Assembly: GCA_019358915.1 (NCBI GenBank)
Contig: JAHHIM010000071.1
Location: forward strand, 1 to 10,148
DNA: 10,148 nucleotides
Direction of reading: 5' to 3'
Source: Trichormus sp. ATA11-4-KO1
GTDB lineage: Bacteria > Cyanobacteriota > Cyanobacteriia > Cyanobacteriales > Nostocaceae
Below the pieces are notes generated by a model. The model had not been told where the DNA came from, did no database searches, and saw only the letters and a list, made by a program, of their open reading frames with translations. The translations under genes and the position numbers were made by a program. Each line of letters opens with the position of its first letter. The stretch's first letter is position 1. Positions 1 through 10,148 of the stretch are shown here, piece after piece.

Positions 1-33
1 AACACGAACCACGTTCTAGGGGGTTGAGGCGTT

Positions 34-183
34 GATTTAAACGCAGCTGCACGAACTCGTTGCCGCTTCGCTCGAATAAGCGGTGGCTCTTACGGGCAGG
101 AAGATATTGGTAGGGCCAACTAGATCCGCAAGCCCGCAAGAGCCACTCCGCTTCGCCGCTTATTCGCAACGAGTTCTTAAATC
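34..183. repeat. Long interrupted inverted repeat / branched hairpin
   Basis: Paired arms: GATTTAA 34-40 / TTAAATC 177-183; GAACTCGTTGC 53-63 / GCAACGAGTTC 166-176; CGAATAAGCGG 73-83 / CCGCTTATTCG 156-166; GTGGCTCTTACGGGC 83-97 / GCCCGCAAGAGCCAC 132-146 (1 mismatch). GCTTCGC lies at both bulges (65-71, 150-156). Confidence 0.85.
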
Positions 184-526
184 TTGGTTGGGGAAGTATA
201 CTAAACAACAGCTTCAATTAGCACAGCCAAAACAAGCTTTTTTGGCGATTTTCGAGTTAAAGAGCAATTTTATTTTTATAATCCTGTCGTAGCAAGGCTT
301 TTAATGGCATTGAGCCGAAACCCCGACTTAATGCCTTATAGGGTGGACACAGAGAGGTATTCGTGACAGCTATCCACCAACTATGTATGTAAATTTTATG
401 GAGGGTGATTAAAAATTCATTAATAACCTGTAAATTTTTAATTGATTAATCCTAAGTGCTTTTCTAAGCCAAGTTTTTAAGTTTTTTTATTGTAAACATA
501 AACTTTTTAAAAATAAATTAAATACT

Positions 527-554
527 TTGCTAACGAGAATTATTAAGCTATGAT
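527..554 (+). promoter_or_regulatory. Putative sigma70-type promoter of the Argonaute operon
   Basis: TTGCTA (527-532), 16-nt spacer, TATGAT (549-554), preceded by a very AT-rich tract. It would put the transcript start downstream of ATG 555, favouring GTG 597 as the start codon. Confidence 0.4.
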
Positions 555-596
555 ATGGTACATTTGTATTTTTTTTATCTATTTCCAAGTCAGCAA

Positions 597-1958
597 GTGT
601 CCAGAAAAAAAATCGGTCAATCTGACATAACCGGACAGCAAGGCATCAATATTATTGAACAAGTTGTCCTGGATATGGGATTCCTTTGGTATCCAACTGG
701 AGGTGTAGAGGCGGGTATTGACGGCATAATTGAAATTCGTGATTTCCAGACAGGCGAGGTCACAAACTGTATCATTCAAGTTCAAAGTAAAGCTACTCAA
801 AAGTCTCTTCTTCAGTCAGAAAATGAAAACGGCTTTGAGTTTAGATGTGAGGAAAGAGATATTAATTACTGGTTACAAGGCAATGCCCCAGTTATTCTAA
901 TTATTGTCAAAATATCAACTAAAGAAGCTTTTTGGGTTGTTGTAAAGGATTACTTTTGTGATGCCAAGCGACGGCAATCTAAAAAAGTTACATTTGATAA
1001 GCGTTTTAATCGTTTTGATGTCAACGCAAGAGATGCGCTAATTAAGCTGGCTGTTCCCCAAAACTCAGGACTTTACCTTGCACCACGACCAAAGTTAGAG
1101 AAATTATACTCAAACCTGCTGCGAGTCTCTCAACTTGCAGAACATCTCTACACTGCTTACACAGTTACAGAGGATGAATCTAAAGCTTATTCAGCGCTTC
1201 AGAAAATTGGTCGAAATTTAGGACAAGAGTGGTTGTTGAAAGAAAATTTCGTACTTAGTTTCCACGACTTGCGTGAAGCACCTTGGACAGAAATCTGCGA
1301 TTTTGGAACTGTTGAGAAGCATGACGTAGAAGAATGGTCGTTATCAAATCGGCTTGAACGACAACAAGAATTTGTCTGGTTACTCAACAATGCACTGCGC
1401 GAGAAAATCAAAGCAGAATTATCGTTCGACAGAAAGAAAAAATGCTACTATTTCAAACCTACTAATGACTTATCAGTACTTCGATACTCCTATCGAAGTC
1501 TTTCTAAAAAAACACATCGTGATGTTTTTCAGCCCTACTTTAAAAAAAATTCTACAGAAGTTGCATACTACAGACATTCTGCTTTTGAAGGACAGTTTAT
1601 ACGTGTCGATTTAGATTGGTTTTTAGAGATTACACCAACTTATTTTTTCACTAAGGATGGTTATACCAGAGATAAGTTTGGGCAAGATCATCTTTCAGGA
1701 ATAAAACGCCTTGAAAAGAATCCTGCGGTATTTGGTCAACTTATAATGTGGGCAGAGTATTTGATTACGCCTGCTCAGGGTGATTTATTTATTCAAAATT
1801 ACCCATTTCTACATTTTTTTGACCCGCTAGAAGAATTTGAAATTGAAGTTGGTATTGATGATGATATTTGGTTAAGCAACGAAGACGATGAAACTACTGC
1901 ATTGTTAGAAGAATCTTTAAACGATTTACCTCTATTTCAAATAAACAATGAAGATTGA
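597..1958 (+). CDS. DUF4365 (DREN, PD-(D/E)xK-type nuclease)-APAZ fusion; short-Argonaute effector partner
   Basis: N-terminal EAGIDGIIEIRD...IQVQSKAT and INYWLQGNAPVILI fit DUF4365 (D...QxK nuclease motif). C-terminal LYSNLLRV, YYRHSAFEGQF, WFLEITPTYFFTKDG and KRLEKNPAV...W fit APAZ. It overlaps the pAgo start by 11 nt. The ORF is open from ATG 555; GTG 597 (MSRKKIGQSDITGQQG) is the preferred start by inference. Confidence 0.88.
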   Translation: MSRKKIGQSDITGQQGINIIEQVVLDMGFLWYPTGGVEAGIDGIIEIRDFQTGEVTNCIIQVQSKATQKSLLQSENENGFEFRCEERDINYWLQGNAPVILIIVKISTKEAFWVVVKDYFCDAKRRQSKKVTFDKRFNRFDVNARDALIKLAVPQNSGLYLAPRPKLEKLYSNLLRVSQLAEHLYTAYTVTEDESKAYSALQKIGRNLGQEWLLKENFVLSFHDLREAPWTEICDFGTVEKHDVEEWSLSNRLERQQEFVWLLNNALREKIKAELSFDRKKKCYYFKPTNDLSVLRYSYRSLSKKTHRDVFQPYFKKNSTEVAYYRHSAFEGQFIRVDLDWFLEITPTYFFTKDGYTRDKFGQDHLSGIKRLEKNPAVFGQLIMWAEYLITPAQGDLFIQNYPFLHFFDPLEEFEIEVGIDDDIWLSNEDDETTALLEESLNDLPLFQINNED

Positions 1959-3420
1959 ATTTTTACAAGAACCAGAACTGGAGTTTGGCAATGGTGGACG
2001 ACACATTGATATTCGCTTTGGGATGATGCACCATAAACCACTTGACTATGACAGCACATCTGCCCCAAAGGAAATCAAATTAGGGATTGTTGGTTCATCC
2101 GAAACAGTCGAGGGTTTAGAAATTTGGCTCGAGAGATGTAGGCAAGGGATTGAGGCAAAGAATAGTAACCAACCATACCTTTTTCCAGAATTCCCAGGCT
2201 TTGGAGAAGACAATAATTTGCCTGCGGCTATTAGCATGGATTCTAGGCGGAATGCAACTATATCGAATAAAGATATTGACAAACTTCTTCAAATTCAAGA
2301 TGTAAATACACTTATTGGTGAAACAGTCAATTTTTTAATTGAAGAGTTACGGTATATCGATGAAAAAACTAGTCCAGATGTTTTTATATGTGCATTACCA
2401 GAATCATTATTAGAAAAAATCTCTGTAGATAAAGAAAATACTGTCAATAATAACCACCCGGTTTTTAGTAATGAAAATAATCAAAAAGAAATAGAGTTAG
2501 ATTTTCATGATTTATTTAAAGCAAAAGCAATGGCATTAAGAAAGCCAACACAAATTATCTTACCCTCAACCTATAACGCAAGAAAGAAGTCAAAGATAAG
2601 TAAGAACAAGCACAAACAGAAAGCTCCGACAATCCAGGATGAGGCAACCCGTGCTTGGAATTTCTATACTGCTTTATATTACAAAGCTTTGGGAACACCC
2701 TGGCGACTGATCAGAGATTCACGAGATTTGACCACGTGCTACGTAGGTATTAGCTTCTATAAAACACTTGATCGCTCAAAATTATTAACCAGTACTGCTC
2801 AAATTTTCAACGAGCGGGGAGAAGGAGTTATTTTGCGTGGAGGGCAAGCTGAATTATCAAAAGATGATCGCCAACCTTACCTTCCAGCATCAGATGCATC
2901 CGAATTGCTTTCTAATGCCTTGGCAATGTACCGCCGAGAACATCGAAATTTACCCGCAAGAGTTGTACTGCATAAAACTTCTCGATTTATTCCAGAGGAG
3001 TTTGACGGATTTCAGGATGCCTTGGATAAACATGGTATTGATACAGGAGAGTTTATCAGCTTTGACCGTACAGGTGGAACTAGACTATTCCGTTACGGAA
3101 AGTATCCTCCTCTGCGAGGAACATTACTAAGTTTGGATGATTATACTCACGTTTTATATACGCGGGGGAGCGTTGATTTTTTTTCAACTTACCCAGGGAT
3201 GTATGTGCCACGTCCTTTAAAATTCCGGTGTGAAAGTGTAGAAGAAACGCCGAAAGCGCTGGCACAGGAAATTTTGGCACTAACGAAAATGAACTGGAAC
3301 AATACACAGTTCGACCGAGGAGAACCCATCACTATTCGAGCAGCAAGGCAGGTAGGACAAATTTTAAAGTATGTAGGTAAAAATGATCCGCTAGAGTTTC
3401 ATTACCGCTTTTATATGTAG
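1948..3420 (+). CDS. ago: Short prokaryotic Argonaute (MID-PIWI only, catalytically inactive)
   Basis: 490 aa. N-terminal EPELEFG; MID motifs HDLFKAKAM..PTQII and AWNFYTALYYKALGTPW; PIWI motifs CYVGISFY, VVLHKT, PPLRGT, YPGMYVPRPL, LTKMNWN, P.TI; C-terminal YRFYM. The slicer Asp positions appear replaced (GIS for GID, HKT for RDG). Too short to hold N/PAZ domains. Confidence 0.95.
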   Translation: MKIEFLQEPELEFGNGGRHIDIRFGMMHHKPLDYDSTSAPKEIKLGIVGSSETVEGLEIWLERCRQGIEAKNSNQPYLFPEFPGFGEDNNLPAAISMDSRRNATISNKDIDKLLQIQDVNTLIGETVNFLIEELRYIDEKTSPDVFICALPESLLEKISVDKENTVNNNHPVFSNENNQKEIELDFHDLFKAKAMALRKPTQIILPSTYNARKKSKISKNKHKQKAPTIQDEATRAWNFYTALYYKALGTPWRLIRDSRDLTTCYVGISFYKTLDRSKLLTSTAQIFNERGEGVILRGGQAELSKDDRQPYLPASDASELLSNALAMYRREHRNLPARVVLHKTSRFIPEEFDGFQDALDKHGIDTGEFISFDRTGGTRLFRYGKYPPLRGTLLSLDDYTHVLYTRGSVDFFSTYPGMYVPRPLKFRCESVEETPKALAQEILALTKMNWNNTQFDRGEPITIRAARQVGQILKYVGKNDPLEFHYRFYM

Positions 3421-3454
3421 AAATGGCAATGTCGATGTAATAGCTGAAGATTAG

Positions 3455-3599: not shown

Positions 3600-4274
3600 T
3601 TACACATCTATTTGGTTACCCAAATTTTTTACTTGTTCTAGTGCCTCTACTACGCCAACTTCATCAGCAAGCCGAATAAACGCACTGGCTAATTCTTCTA
3701 GTAAGTCACTACGATCCACTTCTACCCCTTCATCAGCTAAATCCATCAACACACGGTTAATCTGCCTACTCAGCTTTTTAGGAATGCGAAAGGTGGTTTG
3801 TGTATAGTCGGGATTCTCGCGTTTAGCTAATTTATCTTTATCCTTCAATTTTTTAGCTGATGAAGGGGTAGTTGAGTTTTCGGGTTGTTGAATGTCTGGG
3901 TATCCAGGTATCTGAATATCTGTTTTTTTAGATGACTGGGTTTTTAGCGGTTCAGATTCCTGGGTTTTAGTAGAGGTGGGTTGTTGGCTGAATAAATGTT
4001 CAACTGGCTCAATATCTAACTGTTCGGGTTGCTGAATATCTGGGTATTTAGATAGCTGGGTTTTTAGCGGTTCAGATTCCTGGGGTTGCATAGTAGCAGA
4101 TTCGTGGCTTGGTAAATTTTCAACAGGCGGAGTATCTAGCTGTTCAGATACCAGATTTTCTGGGTACCCAAGCATCTGGGTACTTCCTTGTGCTGCACCC
4201 AAAACTTCACTAAATCGACTTACCCTTTTACTGCCTGAACTATTTCGTTTTTTATTACTGTCCAATCCCGCCAT
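3600..4274 (-). CDS. ParA-associated partition adaptor (centromere-binding candidate; repetitive disordered N-half, C-terminal ribbon-helix-helix-like domain)
   Basis: Directly downstream of and overlapping parA. C-terminal KRENPDYTQTTFRIPKKLSRQINRVL...DRSDLLEEL has a strand-helix-helix pattern. Internal repeats QESEPLKTQ x2 and YPDIQQPE x2. Start codon uncertain. Confidence 0.75.
   Translation of the reverse strand: MAGLDSNKKRNSSGSKRVSRFSEVLGAAQGSTQMLGYPENLVSEQLDTPPVENLPSHESATMQPQESEPLKTQLSKYPDIQQPEQLDIEPVEHLFSQQPTSTKTQESEPLKTQSSKKTDIQIPGYPDIQQPENSTTPSSAKKLKDKDKLAKRENPDYTQTTFRIPKKLSRQINRVLMDLADEGVEVDRSDLLEELASAFIRLADEVGVVEALEQVKNLGNQIDV
3936..4084. repeat. 29-bp exact direct repeat, 120 bp apart, within the adaptor gene
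   Basis: CTGGGTTTTTAGCGGTTCAGATTCCTGGG at 3936-3964 and 4056-4084, part of a degenerate 120-bp (40-aa) duplication. Confidence 0.9.
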
Positions 4275-4822
4275 GCTACTTTTCCCCCGCGAACTTTATA
4301 AATAGGAACTCCACTAGCCACCGCATCCTTATAAGCTTTGTAAAACCGAATTCCGCGACTGAAAACTGGATAATTCTGTAGTTTTAATGCTTCCATCGCT
4401 TCTTGACCATCTTTTTGTGGCGGTGGAGGAATCATTGTTAGTAGAACTTTCCAGTTTGTATCTTGTGGCAAGGATTTTGCCATCAGTGCCATTGCATCCA
4501 TACTTAAGATGTCTGGTGGAGTTGGGACAATGAGCAAATCACAACCCCTGGCTAAATCTTCCACTTCGGCATCATTAGGACGGGCGGGTGTGTCAAAAAT
4601 GATGTACTCGAACTTCTGCGATCGCATTAACTTCGCAGCTTCCTTTTCTCCACAGACCTGAAATGGTAAACCCCCAGGTCTAGCCCAAGTCGTTGCTGAC
4701 CGATTGGGGTCAGCATCAATTACCAAAGTTGTACCGTCAGCACAAAACAAGGAAGCTAAACATATCGCCGAAGTTGTTTTAGAAACCCCGCCTTTGAATG
4801 AGCTAAGAGAGACGATCGGCAT
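4220..4822 (-). CDS. parA: Small (type Ib-like) ParA partition ATPase
   Basis: Deviant Walker A FKGGVSKTT, A' LVIDADPN, Walker B IIFDTP; 200 aa with no N-terminal HTH. Contains HIP1 GCGATCGC at 4618-4625. Confidence 0.93.
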   Translation of the reverse strand: MPIVSLSSFKGGVSKTTSAICLASLFCADGTTLVIDADPNRSATTWARPGGLPFQVCGEKEAAKLMRSQKFEYIIFDTPARPNDAEVEDLARGCDLLIVPTPPDILSMDAMALMAKSLPQDTNWKVLLTMIPPPPQKDGQEAMEALKLQNYPVFSRGIRFYKAYKDAVASGVPIYKVRGGKVAWRDWTVIKNEIVQAVKG

Positions 4823-5535: not shown

Positions 5536-6390
5536 ATGGCAATAAATATTGATTATGAACAAATTTATCAACTTACATTTCGTAAACATTGGTTGGAGTT
5601 ACTGGAGGTTGTTTATAAGTATTCTCGAATTGCTTCTACAGATGAATTAGTCATGAATGCAGTAAAAAACTTTGAAGATGAATTCTTTGAAGAATTAGAT
5701 AGAGGTACTCCAAAAGATAACTTTGAAGTTTTATTGGAAAAATTATTCCTTTTAGATAAAGGTAAAATTTATCAGTTGTCAAAAGAGCGATCTATGAGAA
5801 TTGTTGTAGAGTTAGTTAAGTTTTACAACAATAAAGGATTAACTACTGAAGCCTATGATTATGCTAAGTTCTATCCAAATAATGAAGTGTGTGCTGAAGT
5901 TATTAGATACTACGAAGAATTACAACCTACAAAATTAGTAACCCATTCTCAAAACAATAATATTAAAGTAATAGAAAATAACAGTATTGCAAATGTTGAT
6001 TACACAACTAGCCTTTTTAAGTCTCGTCAAGAGATTGATTTTTTTATGGCTGTTAGAGAAGTTTTTCAAATGTTTGTAGTTTATCCTAATGTTGCAATAA
6101 GTTGTTTAATTGACTTCGATAAAATTAAGAATAATTTGTCTTTAGAAGAAAAAAACTTTTTCTTTAAAGGAATAATAGACTGTGTGATTTTTGACCAATA
6201 CAATAATTATAAACCGATTAAATTCTTTGAGTTAGATAGCCCATATCATGACTCACCTGAACAGAATTTAAGAGATAATTATAAAAACAATATTTTAGCT
6301 TTAGCTGGACAGAAGCTTTATAGAATTAGAAAAATTTCAGATAACCAAGGTAAGACAGAGTTTATAAAACTTATAAGAGAAATAGCGTAA
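5536..6390 (+). CDS. DUF2726-like (Vsr/PD-(D/E)xK-fold nuclease-like) domain protein with an N-terminal helical domain
   Basis: C-terminal LFKSRQEIDFF..VYPNVAISCLI..IDCVIFD..FFELDSPYHD..RDNYKNNILALAGQKLYRI matches the DUF2726 pattern (D..ELD..H..RD..K..G..L.R). Very AT-rich. Confidence 0.78.
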   Translation: MAINIDYEQIYQLTFRKHWLELLEVVYKYSRIASTDELVMNAVKNFEDEFFEELDRGTPKDNFEVLLEKLFLLDKGKIYQLSKERSMRIVVELVKFYNNKGLTTEAYDYAKFYPNNEVCAEVIRYYEELQPTKLVTHSQNNNIKVIENNSIANVDYTTSLFKSRQEIDFFMAVREVFQMFVVYPNVAISCLIDFDKIKNNLSLEEKNFFFKGIIDCVIFDQYNNYKPIKFFELDSPYHDSPEQNLRDNYKNNILALAGQKLYRIRKISDNQGKTEFIKLIREIA

Positions 6391-6405: not shown

Positions 6406-7347
6406 TTAGACATTGAGCCGATTAATCATGCTAATTATGCTTTTAACAGCGTCTATAGCTTCACTAAAAGTGGGGCATTCGTCTTCTACAGCGTAAGACA
6501 TTCCTGTAACAAATTGCTGATATTCATTAGCATACAAAGAATCATCTTCTAGTGTTAGCAGCATTTTTTGTAACAATTCAACTTCGGAGTTGGCTAATGA
6601 TTTAATTTTTCCTCTGTCGTTATCTATATCTTTTCGCATCACACCAATAACTAAATCTGAAAAGCTTGAATAATTAAAAATTACGTCTCTTAACGCTGTT
6701 AAATCATATAAATGGCGAATAAGAGATGGATCATCTTTTTCACTACCTCTGTTTCTAGATAATACTCGCCAAGTTAAAGCACTTAGTTTCTCTGCTGCTG
6801 TTTCTATAGGTGAAACACAAGCCATTAAAGGAACTTCTGGCGGTTGCTCCATTGCTTGAGCGATAAAAGATTGTAAAGGTCTTTGTTCAACAGCCAAGGT
6901 AGGCGAAATAAAATTAACCTCTAACTTTATATAGGGACGAAGTGCCGCAGGTATGTGAAAATTTTCTTTGTAGCGAATGTTGCAAGTAAATTTACGATTT
7001 GCATTTTCAGACTTTGGTTCGCCCTCCAATGACCATTCTGAACTACTACCACGGATTACTTCAACAATTTGCTTTCGGTAGTTACTACATTCATTCCGTG
7101 TAGGATTAGAATTTGCTTTTGGCAAAATTACTTTGAAATCAAGGTCTTCCGAAAAACGTTTAATAAGTCCAAACCCTTTTGATAAGCTGGTTCCCCCTGC
7201 AAAAACTAATTGCACACCAAAATTATTGACAGTGATCAAGGATGCAATTATCCGCATAGCGTACCAATCCTTCTCAACAAATGAAGGATTAACACCAAGA
7301 TCACTGGCAATAACTTCTATAAGATTTGGGTCAAGAAACGTATTCAA
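6406..7347 (-). CDS. abiEii: AbiEii/AbiGii-family nucleotidyltransferase toxin (type IV TA / abortive infection)
   Basis: VEKDWY, FAGGTSLSKGFGLIKRFSEDLDF (GGT...RFSEDxD nucleotidyltransferase motif), AEKLSAL, RHLYDL. Confidence 0.92.
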   Translation of the reverse strand: MNTFLDPNLIEVIASDLGVNPSFVEKDWYAMRIIASLITVNNFGVQLVFAGGTSLSKGFGLIKRFSEDLDFKVILPKANSNPTRNECSNYRKQIVEVIRGSSSEWSLEGEPKSENANRKFTCNIRYKENFHIPAALRPYIKLEVNFISPTLAVEQRPLQSFIAQAMEQPPEVPLMACVSPIETAAEKLSALTWRVLSRNRGSEKDDPSLIRHLYDLTALRDVIFNYSSFSDLVIGVMRKDIDNDRGKIKSLANSEVELLQKMLLTLEDDSLYANEYQQFVTGMSYAVEDECPTFSEAIDAVKSIISMINRLNV

Positions 7348-7744
7348 AGGTTACATATTTACCGTCGTAACCAATTTTACGTGAAACACGTCCTTTAACG
7401 CCAACAACTCGTCCGGTTGGAACTTGCGTTGTACGTCCTTGATTATAAGCTAAATCATAGCTTGATTCTACAACCTCTATCTGTAATTTCTTTAGAGCTT
7501 CAGTTGCTAATTCACGTAACCCTCTACGGGGAACTATACGCTTTGATAAAGGAGAAAATGCAGCTTTAGCGTAAAGCCCATAACCAATTTTTACGATTTT
7601 ACCTTTCTTTACTAATGCCTTAAGACTACGCCCAATTTGAGTGTAACTAGCAATGTCTACAAAATCCTTACGCATAAAGACATCACGCTCACTACTGTCA
7701 ATTCGACGAGTGATTCTATCTTCTACTGTGTTAGGGGTTTTCAT
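7331..7744 (-). CDS. AbiEi-like antitoxin (DUF6088-type winged-helix protein)
   Basis: VFMRKDF..IGRSLKALVKKGKIVKIGYGLY wHTH motif and AYNQGRTTQVP. Overlaps the toxin start by 17 nt; G-rich RBS upstream. Confidence 0.82.
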   Translation of the reverse strand: MKTPNTVEDRITRRIDSSERDVFMRKDFVDIASYTQIGRSLKALVKKGKIVKIGYGLYAKAAFSPLSKRIVPRRGLRELATEALKKLQIEVVESSYDLAYNQGRTTQVPTGRVVGVKGRVSRKIGYDGKYVTFEYVS

Positions 7745-7895: not shown

Positions 7896-8492
7896 TCAAA
7901 AATCCAAAGCAGAGATAGCGTTTTGCTTCTGCTTCTCAGTTACCCCCAGATATCGCTCCAAAGCCGCCAAAGTCCGATGCCCCGATATCTCCTGTATATG
8001 ACGCAACGGTATCCCCGCATCGCTCATCCTGGTTAACGCAGTCCTCCTGAAACTGTGGGTACTCACGCCCTCAATCCCCAGCCGCGCACAGGTATCTCTG
8101 AGGATTTTATCAGCACTCACCTTGTGGATATGTCCCAACCCATGCCGCCCAGGAAACAAAAACTCCTTGCGGCGGTTGGGGTTGTACTCTTCCAAATACT
8201 GCTTGAGCTTCGGATGCACTCGAATTTCCCTGGTGTCCCGCTTGCCTTTAGTGTTGACGCTCCGTAGCACCAACACCCCCCTGACACCATTGCTGCCAAA
8301 CACGTCATTTACCGCCAACGTGCAAGCCTCGTTGATTCGGCAAGCAGCATAAAGACACACGCCGAATAGAGCGCGATTACGCGCAGCGTAGTGCCGGAGG
8401 CAATCGCGTGGGTTGACAAAGCCCTCGTTAAATAGGAGATTAATTTGGTCAGGGGTGAGAATTTCTGCTCGACCGAAACGATTGATTTTCAT
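7896..8492 (-). CDS. Tyrosine recombinase (short, catalytic-domain-only type)
   Basis: Catalytic motifs ACRINE (R), TKGK (K), HSFRRT (HxxR), ISGH (H) and LERYL (Y). The real start is probably ATG 8492 (MKINRFGRAEILT); the extension to 8555 in the ORF track translates heptamer repeats. Confidence 0.92.
   Translation of the reverse strand: MKINRFGRAEILTPDQINLLFNEGFVNPRDCLRHYAARNRALFGVCLYAACRINEACTLAVNDVFGSNGVRGVLVLRSVNTKGKRDTREIRVHPKLKQYLEEYNPNRRKEFLFPGRHGLGHIHKVSADKILRDTCARLGIEGVSTHSFRRTALTRMSDAGIPLRHIQEISGHRTLAALERYLGVTEKQKQNAISALDF
8378..8404. mobile_element. 27-nt structured insertion in a HIP1 octamer (SDR5-like small dispersed repeat)
   Basis: Removing 8378-8404 regenerates GCGATCGC and the usual RDRALF motif. 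The insert folds as TACGC-GCA-GCGTA plus TGCC-GGA-GGCA, closed by GCGAT/ATCGC. Confidence 0.8.
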
Positions 8493-8680: not shown

Positions 8681-9289
8681 TGCTTGAGCGTAAGGTTTTG
8701 AGAGAGGACACCAGCATTGATACAATTTCGTTAGCTTCCTGCATTAAGTTCTGAAGCAATTTAGAGTCCACTAATTTCGCTTTGACAATCAATTCCATCC
8801 AATAAACAATACCTTAGCCAAAATAAGAGCCTTGATAATTTTTGGCAAAACTGGCAAAAATAAGCATACATAAGCGTTTCGATAAAAAGGTAGTTTGTCA
8901 TCCCAAACCCTTATCCTGCTGTCAATACGTTAAAAAACCCTTGTGGGAAACCTTAAAGGAATTTTTATGGCTGATTGTTTTTGCCAAGCCGAGCGAGAAA
9001 TGGGAGTTAATGGTTAAAGCATCATCATCTCACCCTCGTAAATTGGCTAAGGTATTGATAAAGCGATTCATCGGCTTCCTCTAATGTAATATTGAGCTTG
9101 GTGATCAGTTCAGCCGTTGATTTGGCACTGGCTCCTGCCCGATAATTGGCTCCTACTGAAGTTCCTGAACGGAGTAATTGTTTGCCTATGACTTGTGAAG
9201 TTGTTTGGTCTTTTGGTAAGGCCTCAACTAAATTAATCACCCGTAAAGCACTCGTATTGGGTTCTCTCCTTAAACTGCTCCTTGTCCAT
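8637..9289 (-). pseudogene. Four-helix-bundle protein (23S rRNA intervening-sequence protein / TIGR02436-like), disrupted
   Basis: ATG 9289 gives MDKEQFKERT, then a +1 frameshift near 9251-9260 to ALRVINLVEALP..IGKQLLRSGTSVGANYRA..EEADESLY, then the MITE, then WMELIVKAKLV..LMQEANEIVSMLVSSLKTLR..stop at 8637. Confidence 0.88.
8807..9057. mobile_element. 251-bp MITE (non-autonomous IS derivative)
   Basis: 15-bp perfect TIR CAATACCTTAGCCAA (8807-8821) / TTGGCTAAGGTATTG (9043-9057), 20/23 when extended. 5-bp target duplication ATAAA at 8802-8806 and 9058-9062. Excision restores ESLY-WMEL in frame. Confidence 0.93.
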
Positions 9290-9946: not shown

Positions 9947-10024
9947 ATGGTTGATTTCAAAAAGAAACTGGGGACAAAATCGATTGAGAAAAAAGTAAAT
10001 CCTGTTGAGATTTACGATAGCTTA
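9947..10024 (+). pseudogene. 5' fragment of a gene interrupted by an IS; probably a DEAD/DEAH-box (SF2) helicase
   Basis: ATG 9947 reads MVDFKKKLGTKSIEKKVNPVEIYDSL, then enters the IS end and stops. The N-terminus resembles my recollection of SF2 helicase starts; no helicase motif is inside the window. Confidence 0.55.
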
Positions 10025-10148
10025 GAGGGTGTTTGAAAAGTCAGAAAGGTTGTAAAAAAGCTCTCTCAGTATAAGCTGTGAATGAATAGTAAACAGCACC
10101 GAGAGAGTGACATGAGTAAAGCTTACCCCAGCAATCTGACCCGTGACC
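10025..10148 (+). mobile_element. Left end of an IS5-family (IS1031-like) insertion sequence, truncated by the window
   Basis: Terminus GAGGGTGTTTGAAAAG follows TTA (10022-10024, candidate 3-bp target); a transposase start lies at 10112. Confidence 0.8.
10112..10148 (+). CDS. IS5-family transposase, N-terminal fragment (partial)
   Basis: MSKAYPSNLTRD matches the YPS(D/N)LT N-terminal motif of IS5-family (DUF4096) transposases. Confidence 0.8.
   Translation, partial: MSKAYPSNLTRD

Follow-up and report, generated by a model that had tools for sequence, protein, structure and literature searches.

A SPARDA short Argonaute operon with a conserved candidate LexA operator on a putative mobilizable plasmid of a Nostocaceae cyanobacterium

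Introduction

SPARDA systems couple a DUF4365 (DREN)-APAZ effector to a short prokaryotic Argonaute (pAgo) made of MID and PIWI domains. The closest described systems are those designated Xau, Eae and Nba, for which structures have been solved, and TmuRE-Ago/TmuSPARDA of Thermocrispum municipale, which also consists of a DUF4365-APAZ protein and a short pAgo (PMC10810196). In this work we analysed an operon of this kind located at positions 597-3420 of contig JAHHIM010000071.1 of the cyanobacterium Trichormus sp. ATA11-4-KO1 (assembly GCA_019358915.1, hereafter G000). The window, that is, the whole stretch of DNA analysed, is this entire contig of 10,148 nucleotides (nt), referred to as C71.

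Alanine substitution of E37, D41, Q62 or K64 reduced or abolished the activity of XauSPARDA (10.1101/2025.04.08.647717), mutants of D41, Q60 and K62 lowered that of NbaSPARDA (10.1101/2023.06.08.544223, PMC12205087, PMC12774872), and Q62 and K64 of TmuSPARDA are essential (PMC10810196). One of these papers also counts E16, in helix 1, within the Nba catalytic pocket (PMC12774872). In XauSPARDA an acidic tail plugs the nucleic acid cleft (10.1101/2025.04.08.647717). TmuSPARDA prefers a guide with a 5'-U and a 5'-OH (PMC10810196), which implies that guide preference varies within the family. The Xau and Eae systems were studied under an arabinose promoter, and the available text of that work mentions neither LexA nor SOS (10.1101/2025.04.08.647717).

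The original prediction, made from the sequence of the window, knew of no cyanobacterial member of this class that had been characterised. As to characterisation this stands, our literature search having found no characterised cyanobacterial SPARDA; as to novelty it has to be narrowed, since a Leptolyngbya DUF4365 protein is already part of the alignment in the founding paper (10.1101/2023.06.08.544223, Extended Data Fig 1 legend), and cyanobacterial members were thus already catalogued. The available content of supplement file 1 of Koopal 2022 gave no matches for Thermocrispum, Nostoc, Leptolyngbya or Cyanobacteria. The candidate LexA box, the plasmid setting and the lack of the helix-1 Glu were not part of that prediction. 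From the analysis reported here we consider it highly likely that the operon is an intact SPARDA abortive-defence cassette (approximately 507-3425), carried on a mobilizable Nostocaceae plasmid and probably placed under LexA control.

Results

Assignment of the operon to the SPARDA family

The two genes of the operon (Table 1) are read in open frames and overlap by 11 nt (1948-1958), as had been predicted. The effector matched the Pfam DUF4365 profile (E 3.4e-26, 92 bits, cut-off 24.3) and the PADLOC model Aga_REase-PNTD1-PNTD2 (E 1.3e-158). The Argonaute matched PADLOC pAgo_I over its whole length (E 3.6e-179, model span 1-455 of 455) and gave no match with Pfam Piwi or with NCBIfam profiles. 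PADLOC already models the SPARDA subfamily of this operon. The closest PDB chains were the Eae, Xau and Nba DREN-APAZ proteins for the effector (E 8e-58 to 3e-53) and the SPARDA Argonautes of the same three systems for the pAgo (E 7e-108 to 2e-97); SPARHA chains scored behind them (E 7e-15 for the effector and 7e-71 for the Argonaute), as did SPARTA pAgos for the Argonaute (E about 1e-38). All Foldseek ranks from 1 to 12 of the effector model were SPARDA chains. DUF4365 was the sole effector domain found, with no TIR, SIR2 or HNH domain detected by Pfam, and the SIR2-APAZ and HNH-APAZ matches were confined to the APAZ part of the protein; the operon would therefore not qualify as SPARTA, SPARSA or SPARHA. 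These results bear out the proposal of a DUF4365(DREN)-APAZ plus short pAgo operon, including the DUF4365 and APAZ matches for 597-1958 whose absence had been named as its refutation. Every feature of SPARDA membership that can be checked in this way is present, the helix-1 glutamate discussed below being absent and not family-defining, and the operon almost certainly belongs to this family.

The DREN nuclease and APAZ regions of the effector

The AlphaFold2 model of the effector (predicted local distance difference test, pLDDT, 85.5; predicted template modelling score, pTM, 0.58; alignment of 104 sequences) opens with the helix-three-strand topology of PD-(D/E)XK nucleases. Residue pairs were taken from HMMER alignments against the residues named in the papers. 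The mutationally essential residues E37, D41, Q62 and K64 of Xau and D41, Q60 and K62 of Nba correspond to E38, D42, Q63 and K65 of the window effector. D42, Q63 and K65 are invariant across 104 aligned homologues, and the E38 position is Glu in 115 of the 116 rows with a residue there; the invariance of E38 and D42 among metagenome loci was left out of account, since the pattern used to find those loci already contained both residues. The D...QxK motif read originally in the N-terminal region is therefore real, its GID Asp being D42 and its QSK providing Q63 and K65. So are the C-terminal APAZ motifs, which were recovered as PADLOC APAZ-region matches and as a fold match (template modelling score TMt 0.80-0.88) to the DREN-less SPARDA chains 9qbl_A, 9qbp_A and 9vx1_B. 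Within the acidic tail, residues 439-453 have low pLDDT.

In the predicted assembly, four copies of DREN residues 1-152 come together via contacts between helices 1 (N18-N18) and between strands, with a score of 0.95 against 0.00 for the best control, at least 95% agreement of the contacts between runs and a pLDDT of at least 91; 20 of 30 solved pairs, but only 1 of 23 single chains, reached the mark used for this score. As similar complexes have already been solved, the prediction shows likeness, not binding. Among the interface residues, some of them mapped by eye, N17 of Nba is kept as N18, R285 as R290 and the K324-E360 pair as R329-D365.

The Argonaute: slicer columns and guide pocket

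The window Argonaute aligns end to end with the Xau, Eae and Nba Argonautes. In a comparison with eight cyanobacterial long pAgos, its slicer columns hold S269, T344 and R467; the first two are Asp in all eight long pAgos and R467 is at the fourth tetrad position, while the Glu finger column was not reliably alignable. The description as a MID-PIWI-only Argonaute devoid of the slicer acidic residues was thus upheld at three tetrad columns.

The guide pocket comprises D185-F186-H187-K191, Q230, N238 and K246. Its phosphate site, made up of H187, K191 and K246, belongs to the HK type known from short pAgos (PMC6299218). The H187 position carries His in 60 and Arg in 5 of the 65 covered metagenome loci, and Arg in four Nostoc copies. 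The residues that read the second guide base (U2) are kept as Q230 and N238. The first-base pocket is changed: W159, W201 and N181 of Nba, and N179 of Xau, correspond to S159, L205 and D185, and Asp is found at the D185 position in 58 of the 65 covered metagenome loci. The preference for the guide 5' base may differ from the 5'-A of Nba, Xau and Eae, because this branch lacks the helix-1 Glu and the adenine-reading Asn of the solved systems; reading of U at the second position would be kept.

Translation start, promoter and candidate LexA operator

GTG occupies the start position in the window and in all 16 tabulated relatives, which led us to take GTG 597 as the right start. The alternative of the public record, the in-frame ATG 555 (467 aa), was rejected: in the Nostoc upstream regions this codon either falls in another frame or has a stop behind it, and in the window it comes directly after the predicted -10 element. 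The promoter scan as a whole was not above chance (7 sites versus 9.6 in shuffles), so that support for the promoter comes from conservation, a TA-N3-T hexamer ending 2-3 nt before the box described next in the window and all 16 relatives.

This box covers the position where transcription is expected to start, is separated from the -10 element by 2 nt and from the GTG by 40 nt, and matches 13 of the 14 positions of the LexA consensus of Nostoc PCC 7120, RGTACNNNDGTWCB (PMC3091678). It is found at -37 to -41 in all 13 relatives of at least 65% identity, with one mismatch in nine and two in four; their half-sites are fixed and the spacer is variable. The distant loci L110, L116 and L153 (51-55%), picked partly after the scan, have the box at -40, and L106 (53%) has none. 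A one-mismatch box at -60 to -25 precedes only 16 of 2599 host open reading frames (ORFs). Similar boxes stand before two further host genes, presumably uvrA and ssb, and the host LexA protein has both domains. The boxes of host lexA and recA are identical to those listed for PCC 7120 (PMC3091678, Table 1). The locus thus shows what would be expected of a LexA regulon member: a 14-bp box near the promoter, its conservation in orthologues and a host that encodes LexA. Real binding of LexA at 557-570 appears probable.

In the 17 alphaproteobacterial plasmid copies the cyanobacterial box was absent (0/17). The sequence GTTC-N7-GTTC occurred there exactly in three (0.07 expected) and within one mismatch in six (1.77 expected), four of them at -26/-27; loci with such promoters are L023, L073, L074, L076 and L020. 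Among 64 distinct metagenome upstream regions, seven had the cyanobacterial box (2.6 expected), one had an exact GTTC-N7-GTTC (0.33 expected) and none had the Gram-positive or E. coli LexA box types. LexA control as a family-wide rule was rejected, being unsupported by these metagenome counts. The LexA targets reported for PCC 7120 are repair, hydrogenase and stress genes (PMC3091678). No paper that puts a short-pAgo operon under the control of LexA came up in our literature search, which covered few subscription journals.

Linkage, selection and spread

The ratio of nonsynonymous to synonymous substitution (dN/dS) against five intact Nostoc copies was 0.13-0.19 in the effector gene and 0.10-0.13 in that of the Argonaute; in two pairs of greater distance it was affected by saturation. 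A pAgo gene stands downstream of the effector gene in every one of the 14 genome loci and in 69 of the 72 metagenome loci with room there. DNA homology to the Nostoc copies runs from about 507 to 3425, suggesting that promoter and genes move as one unit; in L004 and L009 it begins only inside the gene. Of the 389 genomes in the family of the host, 9 have a close copy, G000 being one of them. Named relatives include Nostoc, Coleofasciculus, Leptolyngbya, Nodosilinea and Tildeniella. Near-full-length effector homologues are found on 22 of 72,556 PLSDB plasmids, and plasmid carriage is thus not unusual. No relative was found on viral contigs, and the queries used found no second pAgo elsewhere in G000. 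An Rfam scan of the window gave no match at E up to 1, and a terminator scan returned two sites (3.0 in shuffles), none of them after the operon.

Two independent internal deletions of APAZ/MID parts were seen in L005 (6001-7746) and L012 (6001-7136), the remainder of L005 being a single in-frame 581-aa fusion. In another Nostocaceae genome (G025), at L017:451-3460, a TIR-APAZ gene is accompanied by a short pAgo that PADLOC places in class I, as it does the window Argonaute. The APAZ part of this TIR-APAZ protein fits REase-APAZ models better than TIR-APAZ ones, which suggests an effector swap.

Table 1. Positions of the features identified in the window
Feature	Positions	Strand	Basis
Mob_Pre (MOB-V type) relaxase, last codons and stop	1-35	+	3-35 encode the C-terminal 10 residues of the C61 relaxase
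Sigma-70-type promoter	-35 TTGCTA 527-532; -10 TATGAT 549-554	+	9/12 matches; conservation
Candidate cyanobacterial LexA operator	557-570		One mismatch to RGTACNNNDGTWCB
DREN(DUF4365)-APAZ effector gene	597-1958	+	453 aa, GTG start; Pfam, PADLOC, PDB, Foldseek
DREN PD-(D/E)XK nuclease domain, about residues 1-152	597-1052	+	Pfam, alignments, model topology
DREN residues	I17 645-647; E38 708-710; D42 720-722; Q63 783-785; K65 789-791	+	Alignment mapping
APAZ (N-L1-L2-like) domain, approximate limits	1089-1865	+	PADLOC APAZ-region matches; fold match
Acidic C-terminal tail, candidate autoinhibitory plug	1866-1955	+	9 D/E and no K/R in the last 30 residues
Short pAgo (MID-PIWI)	1948-3420	+	490 aa; PADLOC, PDB alignments
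Plasmid partition pair	3600-4822; ParA 4220-4822, 224-aa partner 3600-4274	-	Pfam/NCBIfam ParA matches

Host and plasmid setting

The host has DnaA and DnaN proteins with 87% and 88% identity to those of Nostoc, carries psbA, shows 824 HIP1 sites per Mb and falls in the same GTDB family as the Nostoc genomes, which agrees with the cyanobacterial context proposed at the outset. It was placed by its proteins, as a search of the G000 contigs found no 16S gene. C71 has one HIP1 site in 10 kb and a GC content of 38.5% (41.7% in the host). Window positions 1-181 are 98.9% identical to positions 6982-7162 of contig C61, whose relaxase matches Mob_Pre (E 5e-38). Over about 1.3 kb, the DNA of the partition pair is 83% identical to that of complete plasmids from Tolypothrix and Aulosira, and AbiEi/AbiEii and tyrosine recombinase genes lie beyond it. 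On its best reading C71 looks like part of a mobilizable plasmid whose replicon is not closed.

Other elements were noted along the contig. A 284-aa gene at 5536-6390 (plus strand, about 27% GC) with a weak, sub-cut-off DUF2726 match (E 3e-4) could possibly encode a further defence nuclease, and the AbiEi-AbiEii genes at 6406-7744 (minus strand) form a type IV toxin-antitoxin pair. Compared with its paralogue on C67, the recombinase gene contains nine additional in-frame codons at about 8380-8407, an insertion that to our eye resembles the short dispersed repeats of Nostocales. A 251-bp element with 23-nt inverted ends (8807-9057), of which five copies of 96-100% identity exist elsewhere in G000, sits inside a gene for a four-helix-bundle protein (23S rRNA IVP family); a contig from another sequencing run joins across it, and tandem repeats of 7 nt, inversely oriented, stand on either side of the gene. 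In the last part of the window (9947-10148), an ORF that begins at 9947 is truncated at about 10022, where it runs into the end of a multicopy element; this element is found at several contig ends, and we take it to be of the IS5 family. Contigs C61 and C67 (loci L025 and L026) represent a sister plasmid with HmaA, HmaB and HmaC in place of SPARDA, which shares with C71 a near-identical relaxase end and an 87%-identical recombinase.

Chromosomal copies beside the putative Nostoc replication origin

In six of the eight Nostoc-named loci (L001, L002, L003, L007, L008 and L012; approximately 5500-10600) SPARDA is chromosomal and occupies the interval from dnaA to dnaN; the last DnaA box precedes the cassette by about 90-100 nt in five of these loci and by about 390 nt in L007. 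Other loci have the cassette among type I restriction-modification (RM), DUF499/DUF1156 and DarTG genes. The possibility that the window itself belongs to the host replication origin (oriC) was rejected: dnaA and dnaN are on different G000 contigs, and the DnaA-box cluster before dnaN is without SPARDA.

The dnaA-dnaN gap spans 312 to 23,926 nt in the 35 of 127 Nostoc genomes that were paired by eye. Its cargo, surveyed in 29 gaps (L041-L069; 44 of 105 ORFs scanned), comprises TIR/FGE-sulfatase (six gaps), caspase/FGE-sulfatase (five) and PIN toxin-antitoxin genes (seven), and further includes metal efflux and IS605 genes. The gap is a variable, defence-leaning cargo slot beside the putative oriC. 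In L058 (1600-5358) the slot contains a caspase-FGE-sulfatase gene followed by bAvd-like and reverse-transcriptase genes, in the arrangement of a diversity-generating retroelement. A 146-aa ORF (L001:8945-9385 and most of L042-L063) recurs in the slot of many Nostoc genomes, with or without SPARDA; it had no Pfam or PADLOC match and was not found in G000.

Discussion

The operation of the window cassette can be sketched by extension from the Nba, Xau, Eae and Tmu systems. Effector and Argonaute would associate 1:1, the acidic tail occupying the nucleic acid cleft; the Argonaute would load a short RNA guide and pair it with single-stranded DNA of an invading plasmid or phage; the complexes would then polymerise via Argonaute contacts, gathering four DREN domains into an active tetramer that would cut DNA indiscriminately, killing or arresting the cell. 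As a step suggested by the window operon only, LexA would keep expression low until stress or DNA damage, acting as a transcriptional safety catch. The term functional, used for this homologue in the original prediction, is one that we infer from intact frames, kept catalytic residues and purifying selection, and on these grounds the nuclease system of the window copy is very probably active.

Several of our observations weigh against this reading and have to be set beside its rivals. The position of Nba E16 reads I17 in the window effector; the Nba tetramer residues E13, R20, Q29, D31 and R33 are replaced by Q14, E21, L30, Y32 and T34, and R287 and E253 of the PIWI-PIWI interface by E292 and S258; and 5 of the 14 genome loci are broken, two by deletions (L005 and L012) and three by split effector genes (L007, L013 and L014) that may partly be sequencing errors, from which it appears that SPARDA cassettes decay often. 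A first rival is that this branch has a lost or weakened nuclease and binds or compacts DNA, or that the copy is a decaying relic. The broken loci would fit it, and so would the Glu-less state: Ile or Val stands at the Nba E16 position in 111 of the 112 homologues that are not gapped at it (8 of the 120 rows are) and in 79 of 79 metagenome loci. Against it, D42, Q63 and K65 do not vary and E38 hardly does, dN/dS is 0.10-0.19 and the Glu-less state itself is widespread. All three solved systems (Eae, Xau and Nba) carry the helix-1 Glu, and among the alphaproteobacterial plasmid copies 12 of 17 have it and 5 lack it; in a quick tree of 45 rows, built without the truncated L080 and L081, the 10 Glu rows fell on one long branch (Shimodaira-Hasegawa-like approximate likelihood ratio test, SH-aLRT, 100; root open). 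The helix-1 Glu of the pocket is one paper's structural assignment and no family-defining test, the available text of that paper states no result for an E16 single mutant (PMC12774872), and E38 may stand in for the absent residue. A dead nuclease or a relic is, accordingly, quite improbable. A second possibility keeps the same chemistry and differs in the beneficiary, not in the mechanism: the cassette could serve the plasmid, excluding competing plasmids or phages or acting as a selfish, stress-triggered kill switch. It would be in keeping with the location between a relaxase end and the partition pair, with the HmaABC genes adjoining the same relaxase in the sister plasmid, with the 22 of 72,556 PLSDB plasmids that carry full-length effector homologues, and with the action of Xau and Eae on plasmids and not on 12 phages (10.1101/2025.04.08.647717). 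However, six of the eight Nostoc-named loci are chromosomal and adjoin dnaA, others lie among type I RM, DUF499/DUF1156 and DarTG genes, and the antitoxin logic of post-segregational killing is absent; we regard this service to the plasmid as unlikely.

For the control by LexA there is a rival explanation as well: the palindrome at 557-570 could belong to the core promoter or be bound by a regulator other than LexA, with the operon expressed constitutively. The box has one mismatch to the consensus, and two in 4 of the 13 close relatives; such one-mismatch matches number 838 on the plus strand of G000; and within the window alone the box is at chance level (two sites, a count reached by 48 of 200 shuffles), so that conservation, not window statistics, is the evidence for it. 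Moreover, most box-bearing relatives are close kin or duplicates, with about four distinct promoter groups among the 13, and box enrichment is absent from most non-cyanobacterial copies, those from metagenomes showing none for three further types of LexA box. In PCC 7120, LexA undergoes RecA-independent autoproteolysis and lexA is not induced by UV-B or mitomycin C (PMC5101192), so that relief of repression need not be classical SOS. Set against the constitutive alternative are the fixed position and half-sites of the box in promoters whose flanks cannot be aligned (L004 and L009), the listing of its TGTATT right half for lexA promoters (PMC3091678, Table 1), and the alphaproteobacterial copies, which carry their own LexA type, GTTC-N7-GTTC, in 3 of 17 and the cyanobacterial box in none. 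A site for something other than LexA is thus doubtful, although it is the least remote of the three alternatives.

Returning to the LexA-controlled defence cassette, a broader proposal can be built on it, to which we give about an even chance: SPARDA would be licensed twice, by release from LexA upon damage or stress and then by guide-target pairing, the operator being rewritten to suit the host. Such an operator, the cyanobacterial box in cyanobacteria and GTTC-N7-GTTC in some alphaproteobacteria, would make the LexA coupling a selected feature. If so, this coupling would explain why a suicide nuclease can be carried on a plasmid or beside oriC, and the cyanobacterial copies would represent a wide branch for which no structure has been solved, its active site lacking the Glu and its pocket for the guide 5' end being different. 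If TmuSPARDA shares the Glu-less, Asp-His branch, the branch already has an active, characterised member.

The conserved operator offers a cheap and direct test of native control in tractable hosts such as Nostoc PCC 7120; two SPARDA texts describe expression from arabinose promoters in E. coli, and their available parts leave LexA and SOS unmentioned. SPARDA-based detection would gain in breadth from a branch whose guide 5' preference is different, and the variable slot beside the Nostoc oriC is a place to mine defence genes.

With respect to known systems, SPARHA (HNH-APAZ, PDB 9OM4) and SPARTA (TIR-APAZ) share with the window operon the logic of a short pAgo with an effector-APAZ partner and have related Argonautes, but their effectors are HNH or TIR proteins, whereas the window effector is a DUF4365 protein with a far higher score to SPARDA. 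Xau and EaeSPARDA (PDB 9QBL/9QBQ/9QCC and 9QBP; 10.1101/2025.04.08.647717), at approximately 29-30% identity in structural alignments, have the same gene order, DREN-APAZ and MID-PIWI architecture and acidic C-terminal tail, and the second-base readers Q222 and N230 of Xau are Q230 and N238 here. They differ in having the helix-1 Glu, an Asn that reads the 5' adenine where the window has D185, and an Arg-Lys instead of a His-Lys MID motif. NbaSPARDA (PDB 9JSB/9JSZ/9JT2/9VX6) agrees at D41/Q60/K62 (D42/Q63/K65), K187 (K191), K240 (K246), Q224 (Q230), N232 (N238), R285 (R290), R459 (R464) and N17 (N18), and departs from it at E16 (I17), R183 (H187), W159/W201/N181 (S159/L205/D185), the tetramer residues E13/R20/Q29/D31/R33 and R287/E253 (E292/S258). 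The window operon is, in sum, a fifth-plus member of a structurally solved class, and what it adds is a conserved candidate LexA box on a SPARDA promoter and a few predicted active-site differences from the solved versions.

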